Source: a virus. From it: a stretch of 64,000 bases of DNA. The notes below the pieces were generated by a model. The model saw only the letters and a program-made list of their open reading frames with translations. It was not told the origin of the DNA and did not search any database. A program made the translations under genes and the position numbers. The stretch covers positions 33,582 through 97,581 of IMG/VR virus record IMGVR_UViG_3300005581_000001; one strand, 5' to 3'. Position 1 is the first letter of the stretch. Each line of letters starts with the position of its first letter. Below are positions 8,201-34,138 of the stretch, piece by piece.

Positions 8201-10589
8201 GGCTTTATATCCAAATCTAAAAGCTTTTGTAGAATTTGAAAAAATTCCAAGAGATAAAACTAATGATAAAGTTACATTTGAAGTCGGAGCTATAAATCCT
8301 AAAGACCAAACCTTTACAGCAAATGCAATATTGGATAGAGTTAAAAAAGGAGAGGCAATAACTGAAGATGAAATAACTTATTTAGCTAAATATTTACCAA
8401 TAAAAGTTACTATTACTAATGGTAAAGATTCTGCAAGTTCTTTCATAGATTCAATGACCTCTAAATCTAATAAAATAGTAGAAGTTGAAACATTACCTTT
8501 AAGAAAATCAATAGTTGAGGCTTTAATTGCTAATAAAGGGAATTTTAAATCTATAGAAGGTAAAGTTGCAAAACAATTTACAGGTACTTTAAAGCTAGGA
8601 GAGCAAAATTCAAATGTATTAGAATTAGATGTTTTTAAAGGAATGACTCCTGAAGAAAAGATTCAATATTTTAAAAAGAATACTGTTTACGTTAGTAATA
8701 AAGGAGATGTTAAATATTGTTCAAGTGACTTAATTGACGAAACCACATCTTTATCAGCTAGTAATAGAGGAGAAGTATTTTTAAAGATACCAATGATTAA
8801 TGGTAAAATGTTCTATTTAAAGTTAAATACAGCTCGTTTAAGCGAAGAAAAAGCTCAAGATGTATTAAGTCTTATAACTTTGAAATCTAACCTTATAAAA
8901 GACAAAAAAGAATTTACATTTGAAGATTTGCAAGCTTATATAGATAATGATTTGCCATTTGTTAAAAATGAATTTGAATTTATAAAAAGAAATAATGATT
9001 CTATAGATGTGAATCTAGACAGACTTATTAATTTTATAATTTTCTCTCAAAATACAAACGCAAAAACTAAGTTAATGCTTAATAAAGATGGTTCTTTTAC
9101 TGTTGGAGAGTTAATACATAAAGTTAATAATATTTTAGGACTTGAAGGCAGTAAGGGCTATACTTATACTACTGATAAATTAAATAATTTATCTGATGGA
9201 GAAAGAGCTGCTTTGGTTAAATATTTTGAATACAAAAGACATAACGTTCTTATAACTAAAGACGATACTGCAACTTTTAATAATGATGACTATGTTAATT
9301 ACTTATTAGGAATAAATAGTGATTATGCTATATTGACCACTAATGCAGTTGTAAATGAACCAACATTTCAAGGTTATTCAAATATTTACTTAAACCAAGC
9401 TGTTGTTGATAAAAATGCTAAAAAAGTTATTCCCGCTGAAGAAACTGAAGAGATTGATTTAGATAATCCTGAAGATTTATTAGCTTCATTAACTGGAAAT
9501 TATGGAGGCATTGAAACTGAAACAATCAAAGTAGAAACGCAACAGCAAGTTGAAGTTGAGAAAGTAGCCGAGCCAGTTTCAGGGGAAATCACGCAAAACC
9601 AAGAAGTATCTCCTGAAGTTGCTGATATTGAGAAAAGAAGACAAGAGGAGTTGGAAAATAAAGAAGCTCATTATTTAATTCCGATAGGAGTAGATCTTAA
9701 TTTAAGAGAAAATAAAAAATTATTAGAAAGAAAAAGAATCAAGGACGAAATCAACGCCAAATACGACGCAGAATTAAAAGCTTTAAAGCCTAAAGTATCT
9801 CCTGTAAAAGATGTAGTAAAGAACAATAAATTAGATCAAATAAATTTATTAGAATCTAAGTTAAAAGGAATTATAAATACTTCTGGAGATTTTACAACAT
9901 ATCCTAAAGAGTTTTTTGAATATTTAAATTTAATATTTAAACCAGGATTTACTGGTGATAAATCAGCACAATTTGATTTAAGAACTATTAATGATATTTA
10001 TCCTGGATATTTAATGGATTCTAATTTTTCAAAAGTAATAGAATCCGTAAAAAAAACAAATTCTTATCAAGGGATGCTTTTATCTATTAATAAGAATAAT
10101 GAAAACTTTTCTAAAACTAATGTAGTAGAAGATGTAGTTGCTACGAGTGTTGATAAACAAATAGCTGATTTAGAAACTGAAAGGCAAAAAGAACTTAAAA
10201 CAGCTAAAATAAAACTTCCTGTTTTAGATTTATCTGCGTCTGAAAATCCAGAACAATATCCTAAAGAAGCTGCTGAAAATGATAGAAAAATAGAAGAATG
10301 GAAAAAATTACCTTCTATAATTAATTCTAGGTATGATGAGCAAATAAATGCTTTAAAAGGCATCACAACTACAGAAGTTAAAACTATAAAATCCAACAAT
10401 CTTCAAGAAGTATTTAAAGCTGCAGACGCTAAAACTAAAGCTAAAATAGTAACAGTTATGGCTAAGCAATTAGGATTAATGGATAAAGTAAATCCTAAAG
10501 ATATGAACTCTAGTTTTAATGAATTATATAGTAATCTTAAAGATAACGAGTCTTTAGAAAAAGAAATTGAAAAAATATGTGGAATTTAA
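5277..10589 (+). CDS. Giant virion-injected protein associated with the vRNAP, 1770 aa
   Basis: Gly/Ala-rich membrane-like N-terminal third (EGFFEEGLQ motif), coiled-coil middle and acidic linker; directly upstream of the vRNAP. Confidence 0.6.
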   Translation: MSLRRKNNPYESQFKNSDIINRFLSENKFVNNAPSNMETVYNAESKTPLLGTNTGLGESSYDEDLNWYSHIDENDPQDSINEYRAQKQSAWDQLGAGLGRTAVKAAVETSKLPGIIGGLVGGIAGQINDASTGEDNTNFIDTVFNNGWIKGLDSINEEIKSEYLPVYVKKAVRDGDLGDKIMSSAFWATDGADGAGFALGMILPGAMLGKLGLGAKMIGAANRMDKARELFAGAERAEEFVKAANKIGATARNIDSGISIGYNTAAEAGAEATQAGTETRANEGKIVNGWKASGYLNTPEYQIEAKKYIQSLDVKRRNGHLTMDQQNELTSDPLKVQEAVLHQRFENEVTSMQSSIFGRNVAILLGPNTLMHMQLFGRIGRSAEKIAEKGAVETVENVGRMSKILNSSIGKGVTKFGERVAKNTLSEGFFEEGLQTSTANQFKKYVAENRAEEVGFGDTIPDTFTEYAKMLGTTEGQVSVMLGGVLGTGMTSIAAHGQAKREAKIKNEITNRLSIPMNNLNNIFNINDIYKKDENGAIVYKKDAQGNPTTEPDIDLVKSQEVLRSLILTDDKLNRYKEAVDNGDNSYLDEQQSNAMFQLAKTAAYNGEKGLSLLKEQLDANSQLTDIQERDKNNDGSKKTYKQIVDETMETAKFLQKQNDKFQDFSSTIIKLNDERLDDPSKAKIYRTAFLNELNSRYLNVQNKLRFNKAKLEQLNKKRNDIFEELGIDPLYMSEAESPLIKMKSGIVSNEDINTRAKKTKEAIDSNELVKQVEEEYNKVSKDIEKNNKDISEVWKGNIVDKSFKDFVGDYLEVEEEANEDSLQNHQDVVDTINSFEDKASLVEYLKGLDQKFRDNDFIQNEFKDRYAYIGEQDKIKEELKRVEELEAESQKFEEDELVGTDTTPETTETVIDNDNNNGLETSQTSDNKEVDENGEVFDKDPSKENNLDDSTNPLKVAKNQGAARIISTNQQTGEALYPNLKAFVEFEKIPRDKTNDKVTFEVGAINPKDQTFTANAILDRVKKGEAITEDEITYLAKYLPIKVTITNGKDSASSFIDSMTSKSNKIVEVETLPLRKSIVEALIANKGNFKSIEGKVAKQFTGTLKLGEQNSNVLELDVFKGMTPEEKIQYFKKNTVYVSNKGDVKYCSSDLIDETTSLSASNRGEVFLKIPMINGKMFYLKLNTARLSEEKAQDVLSLITLKSNLIKDKKEFTFEDLQAYIDNDLPFVKNEFEFIKRNNDSIDVNLDRLINFIIFSQNTNAKTKLMLNKDGSFTVGELIHKVNNILGLEGSKGYTYTTDKLNNLSDGERAALVKYFEYKRHNVLITKDDTATFNNDDYVNYLLGINSDYAILTTNAVVNEPTFQGYSNIYLNQAVVDKNAKKVIPAEETEEIDLDNPEDLLASLTGNYGGIETETIKVETQQQVEVEKVAEPVSGEITQNQEVSPEVADIEKRRQEELENKEAHYLIPIGVDLNLRENKKLLERKRIKDEINAKYDAELKALKPKVSPVKDVVKNNKLDQINLLESKLKGIINTSGDFTTYPKEFFEYLNLIFKPGFTGDKSAQFDLRTINDIYPGYLMDSNFSKVIESVKKTNSYQGMLLSINKNNENFSKTNVVEDVVATSVDKQIADLETERQKELKTAKIKLPVLDLSASENPEQYPKEAAENDRKIEEWKKLPSIINSRYDEQINALKGITTTEVKTIKSNNLQEVFKAADAKTKAKIVTVMAKQLGLMDKVNPKDMNSSFNELYSNLKDNESLEKEIEKICGI

Positions 10590-10636: not shown

Positions 10637-13600
10637 ATGGCGTGTACAAGAATAGCAATAACAGGTAAATCTGAATCATTATTATTTAATGATATTTATA
10701 GTAAAATAGCAGAATCTAATGAAGAACTAGCTGATAAAATGTTTAGTCATTTTCAAACAGAGTTATTTAAAAAAGATTTTGGAAATTTTGTAGAAGATTA
10801 TAATAACAATGTTATTTCAGATAGAACAGATGAAAATGGTGAGCCTAAGTTGTTTTATAACGAAACCGCTAAGAAACATTATTATTTAAATAAAGATAAA
10901 GAACAAGTGTATTTCCCTCTAGTTGATAGAGGGTTACGCGCTATATGGTCGTATGACCAAATCAATAAAATTAAATCTAGATTAGCGTTAGCTTATTTTA
11001 CTAAATCAAGTGCTAAATTAGATTTTAATAATATTGATTTTAGTGAAATGGAAGCCCTTCCAAGAATTAGTCAATTTATAACTAAAGAAATTAAAGAAAA
11101 AGTTGCTAGTTTAGAAGAAGAAGGTGAATATTTCTCAGCATTAAGCTTATCTGAATCTTTAAATCACATAGATGAACTTTCTGAAAATGTTACTAATTTC
11201 TTTAAAGAAATGAATATTGAGTTAGTTGAAGATGATGCTAATGGAGTTGTGTTAGAAAATGAAGAGGAAGGTAAAGATCCTGTTTTTAATCAAGATTCCG
11301 CAGAAAGAAGTACTAAAAAAAGCGTGAGTACTAATGTTAAATTAAGACTTAGTTTACTTAAAGATAATGAAAATTTAGACCCAATATGGAATGAGCCTAC
11401 ATTTTTAAGTAGAGATATGGTTTATTCTGCATTACAAGGTGTTTTAAGCGATGAAATTGCATTGCCTGGTGAAGATATATTCAATTTACATAAAGATGCT
11501 TTAAATCGCATATTAGCAAAGAAACCTTTTTTAACAGAACTACACGGTTATTTAAATAACCCTGATATAACAGAGAATCAAAAAAGCGAATTCAGTCAAG
11601 CATTTAATTTGATTAAAAATAATCATATAGTGACTCAATTTACTATAAATAAAGACAAGACTGTTTCTCATAGCGTTGTTCAAATATCTGATACTGGTTC
11701 AAAAACTACTCAAATAAAAGAACAATGGGATGAAAATTTTCAGAAAAACTTTTTAGGAGTCACTAATAAATTAAAAGATGGATCTAATGAAAGACTATCT
11801 AAAGGATTAGTGGTTGTAAAAGAATTGTCTAAAAAAATAGAGTCTTTTAAGAAGACTTTAAAAGACAGTTCTGATGAAAATTTAAAAAAGAATGAAGTTG
11901 AATTTGCTGGATTTGTAAATGATATTACAAAAATATTAAAAGTTATAGGCGTAGAAACATCAGAAGATGGTTTTCAAATATACTTAGATAATTTTGGAAA
12001 AGACATTTCCTTACCTTCTATGGTAAATAACCTACAAACACTTGTAGAACAAACAGAATATGTTTTAAAAGGCATAAAAGACAAATACGCTTCTGTATCA
12101 ACTAATTATAGCACATTTATTGGATTATCTCAAACATTAAGTAAATTAGCCTCGGCTGAAGCATTTATGATGTCTGAAGGCTCTGATGCTACTATTTTTA
12201 CAGGTGGTAATCAAAAATGGATTTATTCATATCCATCGTACTTATCAAGTACTATAAAACAATGGAAAAAGAAACCTGAAATGTTAATTAGATTATATAA
12301 GTCTGGTCAATATCAATTAGGTTCTTACTATATGGGAGTATTGTCTGGAACTATTAATAGCAACGGAGATAAGCTTCAATATAATAACAAAGAAGAACAA
12401 ATAGAAGTTTCTAGAAAACTTTTAGATAAAGTTGATTTAGGAGTAATGAATCAAATGAGTACTGAATCTGATTATAAAAAAACAACAGATTTAGCTTATA
12501 AAGACTATTTAACTGATTATATAAATAAGGTAATTTCTGGTGATTTTACTAGAACAACAACTCAAGCTGATAAAACAACTGAATTACAAATTAAATATAA
12601 TTTACCTGTATCTTCTTATAATGGTATAAAAAACGGAAATTTAACTTTAACTAGAAAGACTAAGAAAATATTTTTTGAATATTTTGCTTCTGAGTATCAT
12701 AGAATGCTTGAAGCTAATAAGGAAGTTGAAGACGCAATGTTAGATGGAAGTTTAAAATTAACTCCTCATTATCATTATGTATATAATCCAGAAGCTATTG
12801 AAAACGATCCTTCATATGTGTATAGTAAAAATGGTAACGCTTTTAAATCTCAATATTTTGAAAAATTATCAAAAGATTCTAAAGGTCAAACTCAATTAGA
12901 AAAATCTATAACAGATTTATTATATACTGACGGAAATTTAAATTTTCAAAAAATAGAACGAGGAGCTAATATAGATTTAGATAATTTATTTGACGAATAT
13001 TTAGAAGAAAATTTAGATAAAAGATTTGGTCAAACTATAGCTTATTTACAAAGTTCTGATATATTAGTCAGAAATGAGGCTGGTAATTTAGTACCTAATA
13101 AAATAGACTCTAAAATATTAAATTCTCAATATAAAAATATAAGTGAGTTGCAAAAAGCTTATGCTGTAGCGTCCGACTTTATGGTTAATGGATTAATTCA
13201 GAACATAGAGTATTCTAAAATGTTTACTGGCGATGTTGCTTTTTATAAGAATATGATTGATTATAAAAAACGTGTGCCAGCAACATATACTGATGGATTA
13301 CAATTAAGAGTTAACGAGTGGAATGAAACATTTAAAATAGCTACTATTCAAAGTGTAATGCGAACATCTCCTTTTTACGATAAATTAGTAGAAGATCTTG
13401 GAGAGGTTGGCGCAAAACCTTATGAAAAAATTAATAGTGCAGATGCGCAAGCTTGGATAACTCCAAAAAGATGGAAGTTTTTAATTAAATCTTTAGGTAA
13501 ATGGACTACTGGAAAAGATAGTCACGAGTCAGTTTATCGTAAAATGATGGACGATTCTGAAGAAGGTGTTATATATAGTCAAAAAGAATTAAAACTGGCA

Positions 13601-16600
13601 GCACAACCTTTGAAAGGCGTTTATTTTTATAGAGACAAACAAGGTAAGCCAGTTTATTTAAAATATTCTCAAGCCATAATGTCTCACGCATTAGTAAAGG
13701 GTTCTGATTTAGAAAGATTATTCAATAAAATGTCTTCTGAGCAAATAGATGAGGTTATTACTTTTGATGGCGTTAAAGTAGGATCTATTGAGCCAACTAA
13801 AATTCACGATGAAGGTGGAAACATAAAAGAAGATTTCCAACTTAATTCTCAAACTTTATATAATAGAGGTTGGAAGCTTCAACAAGACTTACCAACTAAA
13901 ACATTTAAAGATACTGCCGTAGGTTCTCAAATACAAAAAAATATATTTGCTGGATTGTTACATAATCAAGAACTTGGAAATTTTGAATTAGACGGACAAT
14001 TATACACTGGTAGAAATATAATTGATAAAATTGTAGAAACAGTTACTGGATTAACAAATAATGGTCTTCAATCATTAAAAGAAGAATTCAAAATAAGTGA
14101 TGATTTTAAAATAGGTGATATTTCTGGATTTTATAATACATTAATAGATGAATTGAAAAAAAGAGGTGGTTCTGATAATGTCATTAAAGCTTTAAAAGCC
14201 CAAACTACAATTATAGGAATACCACAATCTTCCAGCAAATTATTTAACATATTTGCTGCTGTAATGAATAGTCGATTAGTTAAAATAAAAACTAATGGAG
14301 GTTCATTTATTCAGATGTCTAATTTTGGAATGAATAAAACAGAGGTTGAAGGTAAAGGAGTTAGATGGTCTCCATTAGCAGACGAAACTACTAATGAACC
14401 ATACATTTATATTCATCCAGAAATTTTAAGACCAACAGTTAAACCTGGCGGAGTTTTAATATCTGGAGCGTTTTTATCTAAATACATTCCTGGTTGGAAT
14501 AAAGAGGATAAGGATGGTCATAAATTCACAAATGAAGAATTATTTGTTAGTTATAATGGCGGAGAACCAATTATTAGTAAAAAAATACAAGAAAATATTA
14601 TTGGATATCGTATTCCAAATCAGGGATTAGCTTCTAATGATGCTTTAAGAATTGTTGGAATATTACCAGAATCTTCTGGAGATACTATTGTAGCATATAC
14701 TGGTATTACAACTAAAACTGGTTCGGATTTTGATGTTGATAAAATGTATATAATGTTTCCTGCTGTAATAAGAAAAGAAAACAGTAAACTTTTAGAATAC
14801 GTTGATTATGATGAAAATAATATAACTAAAAAAGGTCTTCAAAACAGACTTATAGAATTATACAAATCTGTACTAACTAATACTGATGTTCATAAAGAGG
14901 TAATGAAGCCTATTGATATAGATTTTATAGAAAAAGAGCTTAACGCTTTATATCCTGAAAAATCAACAATATTTATGAATGCTTTTGATCCTGAAGTTGA
15001 TACTAAACTAAGATATTCATTTTTAGGTGGTAAAGCTGGAGTCGGTCAAGAAGCTAATGCTTTAGTTGATATTAGTAGAGAAGGTAGTTTATCCTTGTAT
15101 GATGTTAAAAGTATATTATGGGGCAATCACAATGAATTAGGAGAGTCTAAATTTGATGATGAATTTTCAGAAGAATTATCTGAAAAAGATTTAGATTATT
15201 ACGTTAACGATATGGTTAAAAATGACACTTCTAATGAAAAGAAAGAAGCTCTCAAAAATGCTTTACGTAAAGTTAAAGTTGGAGATTCATTAACAGCTAT
15301 TCTTAATGCATTTGTTGATATAGCAAAAGATCCATATATATCTAAAGGTAATTGGACGCTATCTACTACAAATGTAGGTAATATGCTTTTAAGACTAGGA
15401 GCTCATCCGTTATATGTTATTAATTTCTTAGCAAACCCTATAATTAAGCAACACGTAGATTTTCAAAAATCTAAAGAAAGTTTAACTGAAGGAACAGATA
15501 CTGGAGATAGTATTGAAAAATTTAAAAAACAAATAGTTATTGACGCTTTAAGTAAAGTAAAAGATTATAATTTAGATTTAGGTCAACTATATAAAGATTA
15601 TTTTAATAAGCTTAATATAGACTATAAGAAAACTAGATTACAACAACTATATGATCACAATGAAATATCTATAGATGAATTTACAACAAGAACATCTGAA
15701 GTAGATACTTTATTTGATACAACTTTTAAATCGTTAGTTAAAAAATTAAAAGTATCTGATGATGTTTTGAATAGTATTGTAGATAATATGAAGAAACAGC
15801 ATGAAATAGCTTTTGCGCCTAATAAATTAAATATATTTGACAACAAAAGTCTACAGTGGAATGAGTATTTGTTAAATTTAGAGTACTTTAGAAATCAAAT
15901 TAAAACCAAAACACCAAATATTAATTTTCAAATAAATCTACTTAATACTTTTAAAGAAATGCAAGAGTATAGTAAGAATGTTAGAGAGAATGTAATGGTG
16001 TCTAAATTAGATACTGATGGAATGGGGAAAAGCCATAACGACTTATTCTCACTACTTAATTTAAAAGAACAAGTTTTAGGTAAGGTTGAAAATGGTATAA
16101 AGGGCTCTATTAAAGGGTTTGAAACTAAATTTCAAGGTACAACATTAGAAGCTTATTTAAATAGCTTAGAATGGGTTAAAAACGTAGTTCAAAGCAATCC
16201 TTTGCTATTTCCTACAGGAACAGACCAAGTTCAGGGAATTTTTAACGAAGTTTCAAATGACTTGTATGGTGGAAAATTGACAAATGAAGATTTAATAACT
16301 AAATTATCAAAAGAGTACAATACTTATGCGTTAAGTAAATTCTTTGATTTATCTAAAGAAGATACTGCTGATTTGTTAAATGATTTTCCATTAAGGTTAA
16401 AACAGTTTTCTGATGCTAATAAAAGTAAATATTTTTTATTAGATGAACTAAATGTTAAAATTAGTAAATCAAAAGTTTATGGTTCTAGTGTATTTTTAAA
16501 TAATAGAAAAAAATCATCTTCTTACGAAACTTTATTTACAAATTCTTGGAGAGATTTAATCATCGACAATCCAAAATTATCTGAAGACTTAATTAAATAT

Positions 16601-18124
16601 TCTTTTGCTACTTCAGGTTTTCAAATGAATGTTAATCAATTTTTTACATACATACCAGCTGAATATTTTATACAGAAAGACATTAACAATTCTGTTAGTA
16701 AATTTATAGAAGGTAATCAGCAAGATTTCTTAGATAAATTCTACCTAAATAATCTAAATGATAAAAAATTAGTTAGGAAAGTCTTTAAAAATAATGTAGA
16801 AAGCTTAACTGGAAAAATAGATGAAGGATTTATTATATTAGAACCAGGAAAGGCTAGGTATTATGTAGAACTTGAAACGCAACAATCTCAAGAGCAACTT
16901 GAAAATAATGTAACTCCATTACCTAAATATTATAAGTTAATTGGCTATGATTCTGAAGAAAGAGGTGTTTATAAAAGAATAGCTGAAACTTCGTATAAAT
17001 TAAACAAAAAGAATCTTAATAATTACACAGATACTAGCGAGCTAGTTACTGATGAATCTCTTAGGTTGCAAAGTTTAGTTGTTAGTGATAGACAAAAAGC
17101 TACTGTTGTTCCGTCAAATTATACTCTTATTCCAAGTATTGTCTTTGAAGAAAAAAATAACAATAAGAAATCAATAAATATTTACGCAGGAACTAATGAA
17201 AACGCAAGTTTAAGTAATTTTGCGATTAGACCTTTTAAAATAGATTATGGAGGAACTTTATCTGAATTTGATTCTGTAGAACAAGCTTTTCAAGCTACTA
17301 AATTAGAATACTCTCAACCAAGTGATTTTAATTATGATTTAGAAGGAAAAATATTAAATTCTAAATCTCAAAGTGAAATAAAAAAACTTGGAAGATTATT
17401 TAAAGGATTAGATGTTGAAAAATGGAACGAAGATTCTTCTAAAATTATGAAAAGATTTATATTAGAATCATTTAAACAAAATCCTTTAGCATTAAAAGAA
17501 CTTTTAAATACTGGAGATTCTAATTTAACTCATACGCAAGATAAAGGTAGTTGGGGAAAAGAATTTCCTAGATTGCTAATGGAGGTTAGAAAAGAATTAA
17601 CTCCTGAAAATTTTTCTTATAATGAGAATCAAGTAGAAATCAGGTTTGATAATGAAAATACAAATAAGGTTGAGTATTTTAAAGGGTTCTGGAATAGAGT
17701 AGATATTGAAAAACAAACCGATAAAGTATTTTTATTTGGAGATAATACTGATGATAGATTAGTAACTAAATATGTTCCTGCTTCTACGCAAGCTGTTATT
17801 AGAGGATTGCCTAATGCTATAGGCATAGATACTAAAAAAAATAGAGGAACTTCTATTAAAAGTTATTTTACTGATTCTGATTTTAACATATTCAAACAAC
17901 AAGTTGACGAAGCAATTCAGAAAGCTAAAGATAGTGGTAAGATAATAGTAATTCCTGAAGACGGAATAGGAACAGGTAAAGCAATGTTAAAAGAAAAAGC
18001 TCCTAAATTATTTAGTTATCTTGAAGAACAATTAAATTTACTAAAAAATTCCGAAATTGAAATAGATGAAGATTTTAATTTAGACTCAATAGATTATGGA
18101 AATCCTGATATGGATTGTATTTAA
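10637..18124 (+). CDS. Virion-packaged DNA-dependent RNA polymerase (crAss-like), 2495 aa, with C-terminal NADAR and macro-like domains
   Basis: Catalytic GSDFDVDK (DFDVD at 14726-14740) after GYRIPNQG; also KRVPA and DAQAWIT motifs. NADAR motifs at ~17170-17600; VFLFGDN...GIGTG domain at ~17660-18045. Confidence 0.9.
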   Translation: MACTRIAITGKSESLLFNDIYSKIAESNEELADKMFSHFQTELFKKDFGNFVEDYNNNVISDRTDENGEPKLFYNETAKKHYYLNKDKEQVYFPLVDRGLRAIWSYDQINKIKSRLALAYFTKSSAKLDFNNIDFSEMEALPRISQFITKEIKEKVASLEEEGEYFSALSLSESLNHIDELSENVTNFFKEMNIELVEDDANGVVLENEEEGKDPVFNQDSAERSTKKSVSTNVKLRLSLLKDNENLDPIWNEPTFLSRDMVYSALQGVLSDEIALPGEDIFNLHKDALNRILAKKPFLTELHGYLNNPDITENQKSEFSQAFNLIKNNHIVTQFTINKDKTVSHSVVQISDTGSKTTQIKEQWDENFQKNFLGVTNKLKDGSNERLSKGLVVVKELSKKIESFKKTLKDSSDENLKKNEVEFAGFVNDITKILKVIGVETSEDGFQIYLDNFGKDISLPSMVNNLQTLVEQTEYVLKGIKDKYASVSTNYSTFIGLSQTLSKLASAEAFMMSEGSDATIFTGGNQKWIYSYPSYLSSTIKQWKKKPEMLIRLYKSGQYQLGSYYMGVLSGTINSNGDKLQYNNKEEQIEVSRKLLDKVDLGVMNQMSTESDYKKTTDLAYKDYLTDYINKVISGDFTRTTTQADKTTELQIKYNLPVSSYNGIKNGNLTLTRKTKKIFFEYFASEYHRMLEANKEVEDAMLDGSLKLTPHYHYVYNPEAIENDPSYVYSKNGNAFKSQYFEKLSKDSKGQTQLEKSITDLLYTDGNLNFQKIERGANIDLDNLFDEYLEENLDKRFGQTIAYLQSSDILVRNEAGNLVPNKIDSKILNSQYKNISELQKAYAVASDFMVNGLIQNIEYSKMFTGDVAFYKNMIDYKKRVPATYTDGLQLRVNEWNETFKIATIQSVMRTSPFYDKLVEDLGEVGAKPYEKINSADAQAWITPKRWKFLIKSLGKWTTGKDSHESVYRKMMDDSEEGVIYSQKELKLAAQPLKGVYFYRDKQGKPVYLKYSQAIMSHALVKGSDLERLFNKMSSEQIDEVITFDGVKVGSIEPTKIHDEGGNIKEDFQLNSQTLYNRGWKLQQDLPTKTFKDTAVGSQIQKNIFAGLLHNQELGNFELDGQLYTGRNIIDKIVETVTGLTNNGLQSLKEEFKISDDFKIGDISGFYNTLIDELKKRGGSDNVIKALKAQTTIIGIPQSSSKLFNIFAAVMNSRLVKIKTNGGSFIQMSNFGMNKTEVEGKGVRWSPLADETTNEPYIYIHPEILRPTVKPGGVLISGAFLSKYIPGWNKEDKDGHKFTNEELFVSYNGGEPIISKKIQENIIGYRIPNQGLASNDALRIVGILPESSGDTIVAYTGITTKTGSDFDVDKMYIMFPAVIRKENSKLLEYVDYDENNITKKGLQNRLIELYKSVLTNTDVHKEVMKPIDIDFIEKELNALYPEKSTIFMNAFDPEVDTKLRYSFLGGKAGVGQEANALVDISREGSLSLYDVKSILWGNHNELGESKFDDEFSEELSEKDLDYYVNDMVKNDTSNEKKEALKNALRKVKVGDSLTAILNAFVDIAKDPYISKGNWTLSTTNVGNMLLRLGAHPLYVINFLANPIIKQHVDFQKSKESLTEGTDTGDSIEKFKKQIVIDALSKVKDYNLDLGQLYKDYFNKLNIDYKKTRLQQLYDHNEISIDEFTTRTSEVDTLFDTTFKSLVKKLKVSDDVLNSIVDNMKKQHEIAFAPNKLNIFDNKSLQWNEYLLNLEYFRNQIKTKTPNINFQINLLNTFKEMQEYSKNVRENVMVSKLDTDGMGKSHNDLFSLLNLKEQVLGKVENGIKGSIKGFETKFQGTTLEAYLNSLEWVKNVVQSNPLLFPTGTDQVQGIFNEVSNDLYGGKLTNEDLITKLSKEYNTYALSKFFDLSKEDTADLLNDFPLRLKQFSDANKSKYFLLDELNVKISKSKVYGSSVFLNNRKKSSSYETLFTNSWRDLIIDNPKLSEDLIKYSFATSGFQMNVNQFFTYIPAEYFIQKDINNSVSKFIEGNQQDFLDKFYLNNLNDKKLVRKVFKNNVESLTGKIDEGFIILEPGKARYYVELETQQSQEQLENNVTPLPKYYKLIGYDSEERGVYKRIAETSYKLNKKNLNNYTDTSELVTDESLRLQSLVVSDRQKATVVPSNYTLIPSIVFEEKNNNKKSINIYAGTNENASLSNFAIRPFKIDYGGTLSEFDSVEQAFQATKLEYSQPSDFNYDLEGKILNSKSQSEIKKLGRLFKGLDVEKWNEDSSKIMKRFILESFKQNPLALKELLNTGDSNLTHTQDKGSWGKEFPRLLMEVRKELTPENFSYNENQVEIRFDNENTNKVEYFKGFWNRVDIEKQTDKVFLFGDNTDDRLVTKYVPASTQAVIRGLPNAIGIDTKKNRGTSIKSYFTDSDFNIFKQQVDEAIQKAKDSGKIIVIPEDGIGTGKAMLKEKAPKLFSYLEEQLNLLKNSEIEIDEDFNLDSIDYGNPDMDCI

Positions 18125-18141
18125 TAAATAAAATAAAGAAT

Positions 18142-18624
18142 ATGAAATTTATAACACAAGAAGTAATTGATTTACTTAATTACAGAATTCAACAAGAACA
18201 GTACAGTTCTAAAGTTTACGAGCAAATGGCTCAATGGTTACAAAATGCATCTTTTCTTAACTGCGCAAAAGTTTGGGATAAATTTTCTAAAGAAGAATTA
18301 GAACATTCTGAAATAGCCAAAGATTACCTTCTATCATTTAATATAATGCCTGAGTTAATGGTAATTGAGGAGCCTGTAAATGACTTTACTTGTCTATGCG
18401 ATGTAATAGAGAAAACATTTGACCACGAAGTTCTAATCACTCAACAATGCTTAGATTTAACTAAAAAAGCATTTGAATTACAAGATTGGACGTTATTTGC
18501 TTTAGGTCAAAAATATAATGAAATTCAAAGAGTTGAAATGGATGAAGTTTATTCATTAGTTGATATTTCTAAATTAACAACAGATATGCTTATATTAGAT
18601 AAATATATAGGTGATAATTTCTAA
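18142..18624 (+). CDS. Ferritin-like protein (FtnA-type)
   Basis: LNYRIQQEQYSSKVY, EELEH, HEVLIT and Q..E ferroxidase-like residues in ~160 aa. ATG 18142 preferred over the track start 18115. Confidence 0.8.
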   Translation: MKFITQEVIDLLNYRIQQEQYSSKVYEQMAQWLQNASFLNCAKVWDKFSKEELEHSEIAKDYLLSFNIMPELMVIEEPVNDFTCLCDVIEKTFDHEVLITQQCLDLTKKAFELQDWTLFALGQKYNEIQRVEMDEVYSLVDISKLTTDMLILDKYIGDNF

Positions 18625-18674: not shown

Positions 18675-21600
18675 ATGAGTTGTACGTTCAGTTATGTTGA
18701 AAAAGCTTTAAGAGAGACGAATCCTATAGAAGCTGATAGATTAAACGAGAAAGGAATAGAAACTTGGAAGGCAATTAAAAACTCTAAGTTATTTACTTTA
18801 AACAAGAATAAACAATATATATTTAGTAAAGAAGGAACTAAACAAAGAATCAGGCAAGATAAATTCATTAATGATATAAATGAAAATGAATTTATATCAA
18901 ATAAAAATAATGAAATTAATGTTAATTTATTAAAATTATCAACACCGTTAGTTGTTGTTAAAAAAGATTTATCTGAATTTGTTGATGAATCAAAACCATT
19001 AGCTATTCAAGAATCTGTAAATGTTCCTTCTGTAAATAGAACATTTGAAACTAATAAAAAACTATTATTTGGTAATGACGATATAAATAAATCTCATTTA
19101 GCTAAAGATGTTTTACAAAATATTATAGACTCTAATTTAGACTTTTCTAGAGCTGGAATTGATTTAATATTTAAAGCTATTAATTTAGTAGGTAAAGCTA
19201 ATTCTAGAGTAAAAATTATTAGTCAAGAACGTTTTGATGAATTATCTAAAAATACTCCAGGAGAAGGCTCTGCAGTAATGGCTTATGATTCAAACTTTAA
19301 TACAATATATACTACATCTGAAAATTTATCTAAATTTAGAACTGAAGATATATTAGAAGCTTTTCTTCACGAAGTAGCTCATAATTTAAGTATAAAAGCT
19401 ATTGTTAATCCTGAAACTTGGGCTGAAAAAGATTTTAATGCATTTATTAAGAAAGCATTTGAACAATATAAATATTTAGCTGAAAAGGCAGGTTCTAAAA
19501 GTTATGGTTTTACAAATGAAAAAGAATTTGTTGCTGAAATATATGCCAATGCCAAATTTCAACAAGAACTTATTGATTTAGATAATAGTCTTTGGAAAAA
19601 ATTTAAAGACTATCTTAGAAGATTATTAGATTTACCAAAATCTTTAGCTAATGAAGAGTTAATAAATAGTATTTTATTAATTGAAAAAGTTGAAGGATTT
19701 ATAGAAAATAGCGAAGTTTCTTCTAAAATAACTAACTTTAACGAAGTTATGTTTAAAAAAGTAGAAGAAGTTAAAAACATTGAATTAGAAACTTTGTCAA
19801 AACAAGTTCAACATACTATAGACAAGTCTATAGATAGAATTACTCAGCTTATAAAAAGAACTAAATCTTCTAAAAATGCTAAAAATAAAGAAGAAAGAGC
19901 TAAATTTATAAAAGGATTTGAAGAGTTATTAGAAGAGATTAAAAGCCTTGAAAAAAATAATCAATGGAAAGCTATCACTTCATATACAAAGTCCTTTAGT
20001 TCTGCTGTAAATAGCCTTAATAATAACTTAAAAAAAGTATTTAGAACTAGTTCAGTAACTCATAATAAGATTACATATTCTTTTTCTGAAAATGAAATGT
20101 TTAAACCTACTAGTGATGGTCAAAAATATGTTATAGCTGAAGATCTTTATGAAAAATACAAAGATGTTGAAAGTGTAAAACAATTAATGGCAAAAAACCT
20201 TCTAGATATTAATGATGATTTGTATGATATTTTAGATAATAAATCTAATAAAGATATAGGAACTCAAGAAATGCTAGAGACTGTTAATAGTTATGATGAA
20301 TATCTTTCAGCTTATGATTTATTAGACGAAATAAATTCTTTAATAAAGAGAAGTCAAAATGATTCTAATTTAGATAGAAAAGCTAAAATTCAAATAGCTG
20401 AAATAAAAAATACATTGAGTGGATTGGAGCAAAATCATAAAGCACTTGTAGCTGGATTTTTAAATGTAAAAAAATCTTATGCTATAAACTTATTTGCAAG
20501 ACCAGAAAATAACACTAAAATAGTTAATATTTGGAAAAATAAAATATATGCAGAATATGTAAAGTCTGGCATTAAATCAGAAACTAAAGAAGAATATTTT
20601 GGAAGAATGATTTCTACTAAATATAAAGAAGCGTATAAAGATGCGTTATTAGAAGATGCTGGAAAAATAGTTTACGATCCATATTTTGATATATCTTCCG
20701 CAGTTTCAAAAGTTTCCGATTTATTAAATATAAATTCCCCTTTAATAAATTTAATGTCAAATGTAATAAGTAAAGTAAGGGATTCTATAATTGCAAAATA
20801 CCACGACAAACAATTTGAAATGTCTAAAGTTTTTGAAAAATATTCTAAAAAATATGGTCAAAATAGTCAATCTAAAATGTTTGGGAATATAGTTCAGTTA
20901 AGCAAAAACGGAACTTATTATTTAAAAAGCGAATATAGTACTGATTTTTTAGATTCTGTAGAAAATGAATTATATCCTATATTAAACGAAATTAAAGAAG
21001 CTATTGCATCCCATGAAGGGTTTTTTGGAAATCAAAAAGAGCTTAGAAAACAACTTAGAGCCGACGAAGAATATCAAGCATTAAGAAAGAAAAGAGCAGC
21101 TTGGTTTAAAGAACATACTGTTGTTGTAAATAATTCTACTCAGCCAAGAATGAAGTATCGAAACAAAGAACTATCTAAAGAAGAATTGGAGTTAGTTACT
21201 TATTTTAGGTCTGAAACTGAAAAAAACAATAAAGATTCTTATGATGGTAAAATGAGTTTAATAAGAAAAACTTATGGAGCAGTCTATTATAAATTACCTT
21301 CTATAACAAAAAGTGATTTAGAAAGAACATTAGAAGGAGATATTAAAGGTCAATTTAAAGACAAATGGACTGACTTAACTAAAACTAAAGCTGATGATAT
21401 AAACTATGGAAAAGCTATAGGTAAAGATAATAGAGAAAAGAACGTTATAAAGATAGGTTACAGATCTAAGGTTGATTCAAAAGAACAATCATTAGACTTA
21501 TTTACTGTTTACAGAAAAGAAGCTTTAAACGCGATAAATTATCAAGAAAAAAAGTCTAAAGAAAATGAACTTAAATTATTTGTAGATATTGCAAAAGATA

Positions 21601-32314: not shown

Positions 32315-34138
32315 TTAAATATCAGACATAATTATAATAGGCTCTTCTTCTGTTCTTTCAACATTAAAAGCATTGTCAGAACCGTAAGTATAATCAATCT
32401 TACCTAATACACCTTCAGCTATACTTCCTTGAACTATCCACTCTTTTTTCATCTCCACACCAAATCTATCTATTATTTTTTGAACCTCTATTTTTTTTTG
32501 AATTTTTTCAAAAGCGTTTTTAAGAGAATCGATTCTAGATTCTATAGGTGAAGGTTGATCTAATTGTTTTCGATTGTTACGTTTATTTAAAATTGGTTTA
32601 TTTTTTAAAGAATAATTTAAATTCTGAGATTCATCCCAATCTATTGATTTGTAGCAATAAATATTTTCCTCTTTACCTACTATATCCCCTTTGCAATTTT
32701 CGTCATAAATAACTCTTTTTCTTGCCTCTATGTAGTTTAAATGATAATTTACTAGTAAATCTTTATCTCCACTATTTAAGTTAATAAAATTTATAGAGTA
32801 ATTGCAAATCAATCTGTTAAGACTTATTCCATTTTTACCATCCAAAAAATAAGGATCGCTTAATATCCTATTTTGATTAGCAATAGTATAATTTATTAAA
32901 TAAGAATTAATAAACAGAAAGTTTAATATCTTATCGATATCATAAGTCGGTGTATGAATTCTAAACTCAATAGTCTCTTTATTACCAAAAATTAAAGGTA
33001 TAAGGTTGTGTGCATAATATCTTTTTTTGATATTCCACTTTTGATTACCATTAGGGTCTGAAGGGTGATTTTTAACGTTGTTTAAGTCACATTTATAATC
33101 ATAAAAGCTACTACCTTCAGTTAAGTGAGTGAACAAAACATCAAAGTTTCTATTTACTTGTTCCTTATTAGAATAATCTATAGAAGGTTCTAATTTAGAA
33201 TTTATTTGATGAAATGGAAATGGCTCTGAATAATTTTTTCTTTTTATTCCAAAATTATATTTTTTATAAAGTGGAAATAAAGAAAATATTTCTTCTTGAT
33301 AATTAGTTATTAATTTATAAAAAGCTAATATGAATTCAGGTGTTCTTGGTACATTTCCAATATGTAAATGTAAAGAGCAATCATCGTTATATTCAGTTCT
33401 TTTTTCTAATTCTTTAACGCAATCAATAAGGGCTTTAATTCCTTTTGCACCACTTAAAGGTATTGTTACATATTCTAATCCAGCTATACTACCATCTCTT
33501 AAAGGTATTAAGGGAAGTGCATTTAATTTTTCTTCTGGAAGAATACCTTTAATTGTTTCAAATTCAAATCCAAAAGTTAAATCTTTAAGTATTTTACTAT
33601 ATTTTTGAATAGTGGTATTTATTACAGGATTATAATTTTTATCATATCTAATTATATGATTATTCATCATTCCTTTTGAGTCATAAGGTAATGATTCTTT
33701 ATATTCCCTTTTAACCGTTCTAATCAAATTAAACTGATATGCACTTTTTAATGATATATGATAAAAATTACCACTAGATAATTCTTCTCTAAAAGATCTA
33801 TTTATTATATTCTCATTAATACAAACATACATTTTTTTATCTTTGTCTATTAAATATGCATTACTAAAATCAGTATTAAAATAGCCAAAAACAAAATCGG
33901 AATTTTTTTCCATCTCAATTATTCCGTAAGTTAAATTATCATTTTTTAATTGATAATTTTTAAAAGTATTATTAAAAACTACTCTTCCAGTATTCATTCT
34001 AATATATCTTCCATCAATTAAGTAAACATCTCCTGAGTTTTCGATATTACTATCTCCAATTAAGTAATATTTTTGATCTATTAGTCTGCAATTAGATTTT
34101 TTAGATACTTTACCACTTATCGTTATAACTTCATCCAT
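32315..34138 (-). CDS. Putative amidoligase (glutamine synthetase/GCS-fold COOH-NH2 ligase)
   Basis: FGFEFE, RDGSI..LEYVT.PL, SLHLHIG and TIEFRIH motifs. Confidence 0.8.
   Translation of the reverse strand: MDEVITISGKVSKKSNCRLIDQKYYLIGDSNIENSGDVYLIDGRYIRMNTGRVVFNNTFKNYQLKNDNLTYGIIEMEKNSDFVFGYFNTDFSNAYLIDKDKKMYVCINENIINRSFREELSSGNFYHISLKSAYQFNLIRTVKREYKESLPYDSKGMMNNHIIRYDKNYNPVINTTIQKYSKILKDLTFGFEFETIKGILPEEKLNALPLIPLRDGSIAGLEYVTIPLSGAKGIKALIDCVKELEKRTEYNDDCSLHLHIGNVPRTPEFILAFYKLITNYQEEIFSLFPLYKKYNFGIKRKNYSEPFPFHQINSKLEPSIDYSNKEQVNRNFDVLFTHLTEGSSFYDYKCDLNNVKNHPSDPNGNQKWNIKKRYYAHNLIPLIFGNKETIEFRIHTPTYDIDKILNFLFINSYLINYTIANQNRILSDPYFLDGKNGISLNRLICNYSINFINLNSGDKDLLVNYHLNYIEARKRVIYDENCKGDIVGKEENIYCYKSIDWDESQNLNYSLKNKPILNKRNNRKQLDQPSPIESRIDSLKNAFEKIQKKIEVQKIIDRFGVEMKKEWIVQGSIAEGVLGKIDYTYGSDNAFNVERTEEEPIIIMSDI

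Follow-up and report, generated by a model that had tools for sequence, protein, structure and literature searches.

The window that we analyzed, a stretch of 64,000 nucleotides (nt) of viral DNA (positions 33,582 to 97,581 of IMG/VR record IMGVR_UViG_3300005581_000001), carries on its plus strand a single, uninterrupted open reading frame (ORF; 10637-18124; 2495 amino acids [aa]) that we identify by sequence as a crAss-like virion RNA polymerase of the phi14:2 gp66 family. Beyond the polymerase body this protein has a tail with two domains, a NADAR domain and a domain of family DUF7831, which sit in two independently swappable cassettes inserted, via disordered linkers, between the body and a conserved C-terminal peptide. 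We read the tail, with moderate confidence and largely by analogy, as an injected ADP-ribose-processing counter-defence kit, in which NADAR would act on DNA and DUF7831 on some other NAD- or ADP-ribose-derived substrate. A first-pass annotation of the window had described tandem NADAR and macro-like domains at 17170-18045 as erasers of both guanine- and thymidine-linked ADP-ribose, delivered by the polymerase. These coordinates bracket both NADAR and DUF7831, and the domain patterns are real, all of the motifs quoted in that annotation being in frame within the polymerase ORF; an ADP-ribose-linked tail is likewise retained (for DUF7831, by association), while the dual guanine/thymidine activity is unproven.

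The only match of the polymerase ORF in a phmmer search of all PDB sequences is 6VR4 (phi14:2 gp66; E 6.5e-206). Residues 33-2121 (10733-16999) align with gp66 residues 52-2102 in three HMMER stretches, and the catalytic motif DFDVD at residues 1364-1368 (14726-14740) is the counterpart of 1361-DFDID-1365 in gp66, in which each aspartate is required (Asp-to-Ala mutants are inactive; Drobysheva et al., bioRxiv 10.1101/2020.03.07.982082). On the strength of this homology and this motif, the assignment as an RNA polymerase core, already made in the first-pass annotation, is sound. Giant ORFs in the same orientation lie on either side of the gene (1770 aa upstream and 1487 aa downstream), in DNA of about 27% GC. 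The order of the giant ORFs is the same as in phi14:2, in which gp66 and the products of the two adjoining genes were shown to be part of the virion and gp66 to pass into the cell, where it carries out early transcription (bioRxiv 10.1101/2020.03.07.982082). By analogy with phi14:2 and with crAss001, we infer that the window polymerase is a virion component that enters the host along with the DNA. The two proteins thus share about 2100 homologous residues, a DFDxD motif and a neighbourhood of giant virion proteins, but gp66 (2180 aa) ends where the tail of the window polymerase starts and has neither NADAR nor DUF7831. Because the alignment with gp66 stops at residue 2121, approximately residues 2130-2495 (about 360 aa) constitute an extension beyond it.

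The first domain of this extension, NADAR (Pfam PF08719), is matched at residues 2187-2308 (17195-17560; E 7e-14, 52.8 bits against a cut-off of 35.1), scores 57.1 bits on the isolated tail and also matches PHROG 1017. An AlphaFold2 model of the last 357 aa contains two well-folded domains (predicted local distance difference test [pLDDT] mostly above 90), with low-confidence linkers at model residues 1-33 and 189-201 and a stretch from residue 337 that is mostly below a pLDDT of 50. Foldseek comparison of this model retrieves Escherichia coli YbiA (E 1.5e-6) and 8BAU (E 3.2e-6), the latter being the ADP-ribose-bound Phytophthora NADAR, so that the NADAR/YbiA pattern of the first-pass annotation is borne out by profile, by fold and by catalytic residues. 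The catalytic Glu/Lys pair, seven residues apart, is E2215 (17279-17281) and K2222 (17300-17302), corresponding to E88/K95 in the E. coli C7 NADAR and to E36/K43 in AdfN of phage T4 (PMC11543638, PMC11125620). The third catalytic position is H2299 (17531-17533), which aligns with the conserved Glu of 8BAU; His at this position is a variant known from phage NADARs (PMC11543638, PMC11125620). These three residues are conserved in 83/83, 83/83 and 82/83 homologous NADAR domains, respectively. Judged from sequence and model, the domain is therefore an active-looking N-glycosidase.

Among characterized NADARs, T4 AdfN (gp30.3; bioRxiv 10.1101/2024.07.11.602962; PMC11125620) is also a phage NADAR with the Glu/Lys pair and His in third place, and the role predicted for the window domain, removal of guanine-linked ADP-ribose from phage DNA, is the role of AdfN. 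Unlike AdfN, which is a free-standing and non-virion protein, the window NADAR is fused to a polymerase that is presumed, by analogy, to be injected, and among solved structures 8BAU and YbiA come nearest to it; it has the His variant in common with AdfN but belongs to another NADAR clade. It differs also from the NADAR-type antitoxin DarG1 (PDB 8BAT; PMC11543638), since DarT1-associated NADARs have Asp as the third residue in place of H2299. With respect to the DarT1-associated antitoxins (BC4488 family), we found no DarT among the flanking genes, which encode giant cargo proteins and a ferritin-like ORF.

The second domain is DUF7831 (Pfam PF25176), matched at residues 2348-2465 (17678-18031; E 1e-27, 96.6 bits against a cut-off of 27) over 116 of 118 profile positions, and the motifs VFLFGDN, NAIGIDTKK and IPEDGIGTG all fall within it. 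The NADAR and DUF7831 matches are both much too strong to be due to chance. Modelled alone with AlphaFold2, it is predicted with high confidence (pLDDT 91.2, predicted template modelling score [pTM] 0.83), and Foldseek against BFVD matches the model to DUF7831 proteins of giant viruses and phages (E 7e-13). Across 182 homologues, FGDN, TQA, R2389, N2393, TK, GIGTG and AP are near-invariant, and these residues look like an active or ligand-binding site. DUF7831 is a highly conserved, essentially virus-restricted alpha/beta domain, which we predict to be an enzyme or binder of another NAD- or ADP-ribose-derived substrate. The domain tolerates nested insertions: in some proteins (P0236, P0164 and P0142; columns ~800-960 of alignment A2) about 100 additional aa interrupt it after the NAIGIxTK strand and ahead of the next helix, and in P0155 a larger insert lies further along, within the long helix that precedes the last strand.

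The macro-like character given to this domain in the first-pass annotation is a matter of interpretation and not of observation, and its identity as a macrodomain is unestablished. Even at E<=10, searches of Pfam, NCBIfam and PADLOC yield no Macro or DarG model for DUF7831, the DUF7831 profile retrieves no macro sequence from the PDB, and in a structure search with the two-domain model macro matches are diluted among other Rossmann-like folds. AlphaFold and Foldseek, among the checks suggested in the first-pass annotation, recovered the NADAR fold, but for the DUF7831-only model gave nothing better than E 0.07 against the PDB (dual-specificity phosphatases being at the top). A comparison by hhalign of the 182-sequence DUF7831 profile with a YmdB-type macro profile was rejected as evidence for a macrodomain (P 0.031, probability 1.6%, with P 0.055 for a NADAR control), the macro profile being shallow (>=69% identity) and the test consequently low-powered; the alignment itself is collinear and pairs the IVIPxDGIGTG loop with the FPAISTG loop of macrodomains. 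A relationship to SLOG/LOG domains, suggested by the PxxGxGT loop and by a 'DprA-like' label on the gut phage protein cr130_1, was also dropped, though provisionally: there is no Pfam match, and the 50 VIA matches listed include no SLOG, LOG or DprA structure.

Comparison with close relatives reveals the cassette structure of the tail, and answers in the affirmative the question of whether the tail is swapped among related virion polymerases. One of these is a 2344-aa gp66 homologue (P0002; E 8.8e-204) on a 96-kb contig, which is 95.8% identical to the window polymerase over residues 1-2168, without gaps, and 93.4% identical over residues 2329-2495; nine residues replace residues 2169-2328, that is, exactly the whole NADAR domain. 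In an IMG/VR relative (L005), the tail-proximal polymerase segment is 85% identical in protein and 81% in DNA, and the tail carries other inserts. DNA identity between the window and L005 extends up to 17135, resumes at 17599-17662 (the linker) and resumes again from 18030, and these sharp breaks define slot A (17136-17598, holding NADAR in the window) and slot B (17663-18029, holding DUF7831). The first slot of L005 holds, in place of NADAR, a segment of about 110 aa directly after the polymerase body (L005:8030-8400; no Pfam or PHROG match) and a divergent DUF7831 (32.8 bits); its second slot is empty, with no counterpart of the window DUF7831 at that position. The conserved linker between the slots (FSYNENQVEIRFDNEN, 17599-17662) is 89% identical in DNA to L005:8880-8943, where it stands after the inserted domains rather than before them. 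Whatever the cassettes, the window polymerase, P0002 and L005 share the last 30 residues (18030-18121, ending ...IDYGNPDMDCI), which are predicted to be disordered (pLDDT <50). A more distant polymerase (L006; 43% identical, 2188 aa) has no tail.

At the cassette borders we found no repeated DNA linker, just short AT-rich repeats at the level expected by chance. Third-position GC content is 0.094 in the NADAR segment and 0.144 in the core, in a genome of 27% GC; this difference is small and not decisive, and composition was set aside as a sign of recent NADAR transfer. Neither megablast against GenBank phages nor a scan of JGI metagenomes detected relatives. The architecture is that of a polyvalent protein (polymerase, NADAR and DUF7831 in one polypeptide, with cassettes present or absent among close relatives).

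DUF7831 proved to be widespread on giant proteins. When the search was limited to lengths of 1372-4367 aa, it yielded 771 giant proteins with NADAR, DUF7831 or both, and precomputed Pfam annotation places DUF7831 on 115 of the 120 listed; many are encoded on contigs that, at 90-105 kb, are as large as crAss-like genomes, and their DUF7831 is typically about 70% identical to that of the window. An exhaustive search of 1.84 billion representatives returned 2235 hits. Among 249 proteins retrieved, DUF7831 is N-terminal in 69 giant proteins, internal in 67 and C-terminal in 24; 26 of the 249 have both NADAR and DUF7831, directly adjacent in 16 (six with NADAR first and ten with DUF7831 first). In at least 36 of 182 giant proteins, the alignment spans the catalytic motif of the polymerase. 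Elsewhere the Pfam domains adjoining DUF7831 are GNAT (which occupies the slot that NADAR fills in the window polymerase), cpYpsA SLOG, ADP-ribosyltransferase (ART)-PolyVal and superfamily 1 helicase, and the combinations seen in relatives also include AlkB. Because DUF7831 adjoins NADAR, cpYpsA and ART-PolyVal in giant proteins, we place it, by association, in the NAD/ADP-ribose conflict network. In two gut Suoliviridae, cr130_1 and cr272_1, the NADAR-DUF7831 pair is in each case part of one long annotated protein (about 5800 and 6400 aa); the name given to one of these proteins, 'DprA-like DNA recombination-mediator protein', probably reflects a SLOG-type domain elsewhere in it.

Beyond crAss-like phages, DUF7831 occurs as a stand-alone protein (about 140 aa) whose gene, in unrelated Rhizobium and Rhodobacter phages, is surrounded by small non-structural genes, is found by tblastn in many Caulobacter and Streptomyces phage genomes, and has BFVD matches in giant eukaryotic viruses (Tupanvirus, Hyperionvirus and Yasminevirus). 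Cellular genomes hardly contain it: a search of 185,579 representative prokaryotic genomes yielded six loci, all on contigs of metagenome-assembled genomes. This distribution over phages and nucleocytoplasmic large DNA viruses is the one that has been reported for NADAR, Macro, SLOG and DUF4326.

The counter-defence reading of the tail can be laid out as follows. The polymerase would be ejected with the phage DNA, as in phi14:2, bringing the tail cassettes along, and virion delivery of the tail is in this sense presumed. NADAR would most likely take ADP-ribose off guanine (possibly also cytosine) in single-stranded DNA, the substrate being the mark that DarT1-like host toxins set on phage DNA. 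Its flexible linker would tether it to the enzyme that reads the incoming genome, and hence keep it near exposed template from the first moment of infection and active before any phage gene is expressed. The presumed anti-defence role has precedents. DarT1 acts on single-stranded phage DNA, and its modification stops both replication and transcription (PMC11543638). Phage NADARs take guanine-linked ADP-ribose off DNA, and growth on DarTG1 hosts is rescued by AdfN as well as by two phage NADARs unrelated to it (bioRxiv 10.1101/2024.07.11.602962; PMC11125620). Any activity of DUF7831 would be additional to this. A bolder version, which we put forward tentatively and regard as possible though doubtful, is that DUF7831 is a new virus-restricted family of NAD/ADP-ribose enzymes and the commonest effector on ejected crAss-like giant proteins, that with NADAR it makes the polymerase a 'repair-as-you-read' machine stripping ADP-ribose from its template, and that hosts and phages are trading cassettes at the two slots.

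Several observations weigh against an injected kit that acts on DNA. The likeness of the window NADAR to AdfN is marginal (BLASTP E 0.004 over 36 aa), and the AdfN profile PF08010 misses it (E 0.036, 14.3 bits against a cut-off of 36); the domain is closer to NADARs of the YbiA/8BAU type, some of which have metabolic roles. Structure and sequence searches assigned DUF7831 neither a fold nor a chemistry. In addition, Iyer et al. (2022; PMC9503650) hold that soluble ADP-ribose signals, and not modified DNA, are the main targets of the NADAR, Macro and SLOG domains of phages. On that account, extended to Nudix domains in the same published prediction, the ejected tail would degrade soluble immune signals or toxic metabolites derived from NAD or ADP-ribose (such as cyclic ADP-ribose variants or ADPr-1''-phosphate) and blunt Thoeris-like signalling defences. 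The repeated fusion of DUF7831 to cpYpsA SLOG, a predicted binder of nucleotide signals, fits this account, as does the 70% or so identity of DUF7831 across otherwise unrelated giant proteins, which is what an invariant small-molecule substrate might impose. We nevertheless judge it unlikely: all of the NADARs assayed in PMC11543638, bioRxiv 10.1101/2024.07.11.602962 and PMC11125620 proved able to hydrolyse ADP-ribose linked to DNA bases, none is known to act on cyclic ADP-ribose signals, and a tether to a DNA-reading polymerase offers no obvious gain for a soluble substrate.

Less probable still is the dual-eraser model, in which DUF7831 is a divergent DarG-like macrodomain for thymidine-linked ADP-ribose and the polymerase delivers erasers of both DarT1 (guanine) and DarT2 (thymine) marks. 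This model is unestablished because it needs DUF7831 to be such a macrodomain, and relative to the macro-type DarG (PDB 5M3I; PMC11543638) DUF7831 matches no macro model and has no DarT partner here. The tail might alternatively serve phage transcription or self-regulation, acting on NAD-capped or ADP-ribosylated RNA or undoing the work of phage-encoded transferases. DUF7831 lies directly beside ART-PolyVal in the same polypeptide of some relatives, suggesting writer/eraser (or reader) pairs, and RNA ADP-ribosylation and its reversal are known (PMC11833690); but neither of the giant proteins that flank the polymerase yielded an ART match, and the existence of a near-identical polymerase without NADAR and of distant relatives without a tail marks the tail as an accessory and not as core mechanism, so that we hold this role to be quite improbable. 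We give even less credence to DUF7831 as a structural or packaging adaptor that steers giant cargo to the capsid with NADAR as an incidental passenger. Its varied placement (N-terminal, internal or C-terminal) across hundreds of giant proteins of crAss-like phages would suit an adaptor, but it also stands alone in Rhizobium and Rhodobacter phages and is matched in Caulobacter and Streptomyces phages and in giant eukaryotic viruses, the residues that it keeps invariant are of the polar or glycine-loop kind typical of an active site, and the polymerases of L006 and phi14:2 do without it.

The tail is most likely the crAss-polymerase variant of two systems already described, the polyvalent proteins and AdfN. 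Polyvalent proteins (Iyer, Burroughs, Anand, de Souza and Aravind, 2017; PMC5512222) are likewise giant, probably virion-borne and injected polypeptides with several effector domains shuffled between relatives; ART-PolyVal, NADAR and SLOG are typical of them and of the viral NAD+/ADP-ribose network (PMC5512222, PMC9503650), for which virion packaging of NADAR, Macro and Nudix has been predicted (PMC9503650). What differs is that the carrier here is the crAss-like two-barrel virion RNA polymerase itself. CrAss-like phages have no occurrences in PMC9503650, which describes phage NADAR and Macro as typically stand-alone; PMC5512222 mentions neither NADAR nor crAss-like phages; and Yutin et al. 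(2021) noted the crAss-like transcription block only as large multidomain proteins. In the indexed literature we found no paper that mentions DUF7831 and none that links NADAR with crAss-like phages. As far as this search shows, three points are unpublished, namely the crAss-like virion polymerase as a carrier of such domains, the very broad distribution of DUF7831 among giant proteins (many on crAss-sized contigs), and the two-slot cassettes with their natural NADAR-plus/NADAR-minus pair. Because injected polyvalent proteins and the action of phage NADARs against DarTG1 are already published, the tail extends a known strategy and opens no new one.

CrAss-like phages are among the most abundant viruses of gut and environmental viromes, and to our knowledge their survival of host defences is largely unexplained. 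If the counter-defence reading is true, counter-defence enzymes are not solely early gene products but can form part of the very enzyme that meets the incoming genome first, and can be exchanged between strains as cassettes. The window polymerase and P0002, which differ only by NADAR, are a ready-made natural experiment. DUF7831, the commoner of the two tail domains, conserved and present in giant eukaryotic viruses too, is a good target in the search for a new ADP-ribose-related activity.

Two further features of the neighbourhood were observed. A ferritin-like ORF (18115-18624; 169 aa; PF00210, E 1.7e-14) overlaps the polymerase stop codon and precedes the next giant cargo gene; at the same position L005 has a 165-aa ORF and L006 has none. 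The giant proteins that bear NADAR or DUF7831 also tend to have cysteine at their ends: it occurs within the first four residues in 92 of 183 and within the last four in 92 of 183, although cysteine makes up only 0.17% of these proteins overall (about 0.7% would be expected per four-residue window). The window polymerase itself starts with MAC (10637-10648) and ends with DCI (18110-18121), the upstream protein ends with ICGI (10572-10589) and the downstream protein starts with MSC (18675-18686), which suggests a conserved role for the end cysteines of giant proteins in cross-linking, processing or packaging.

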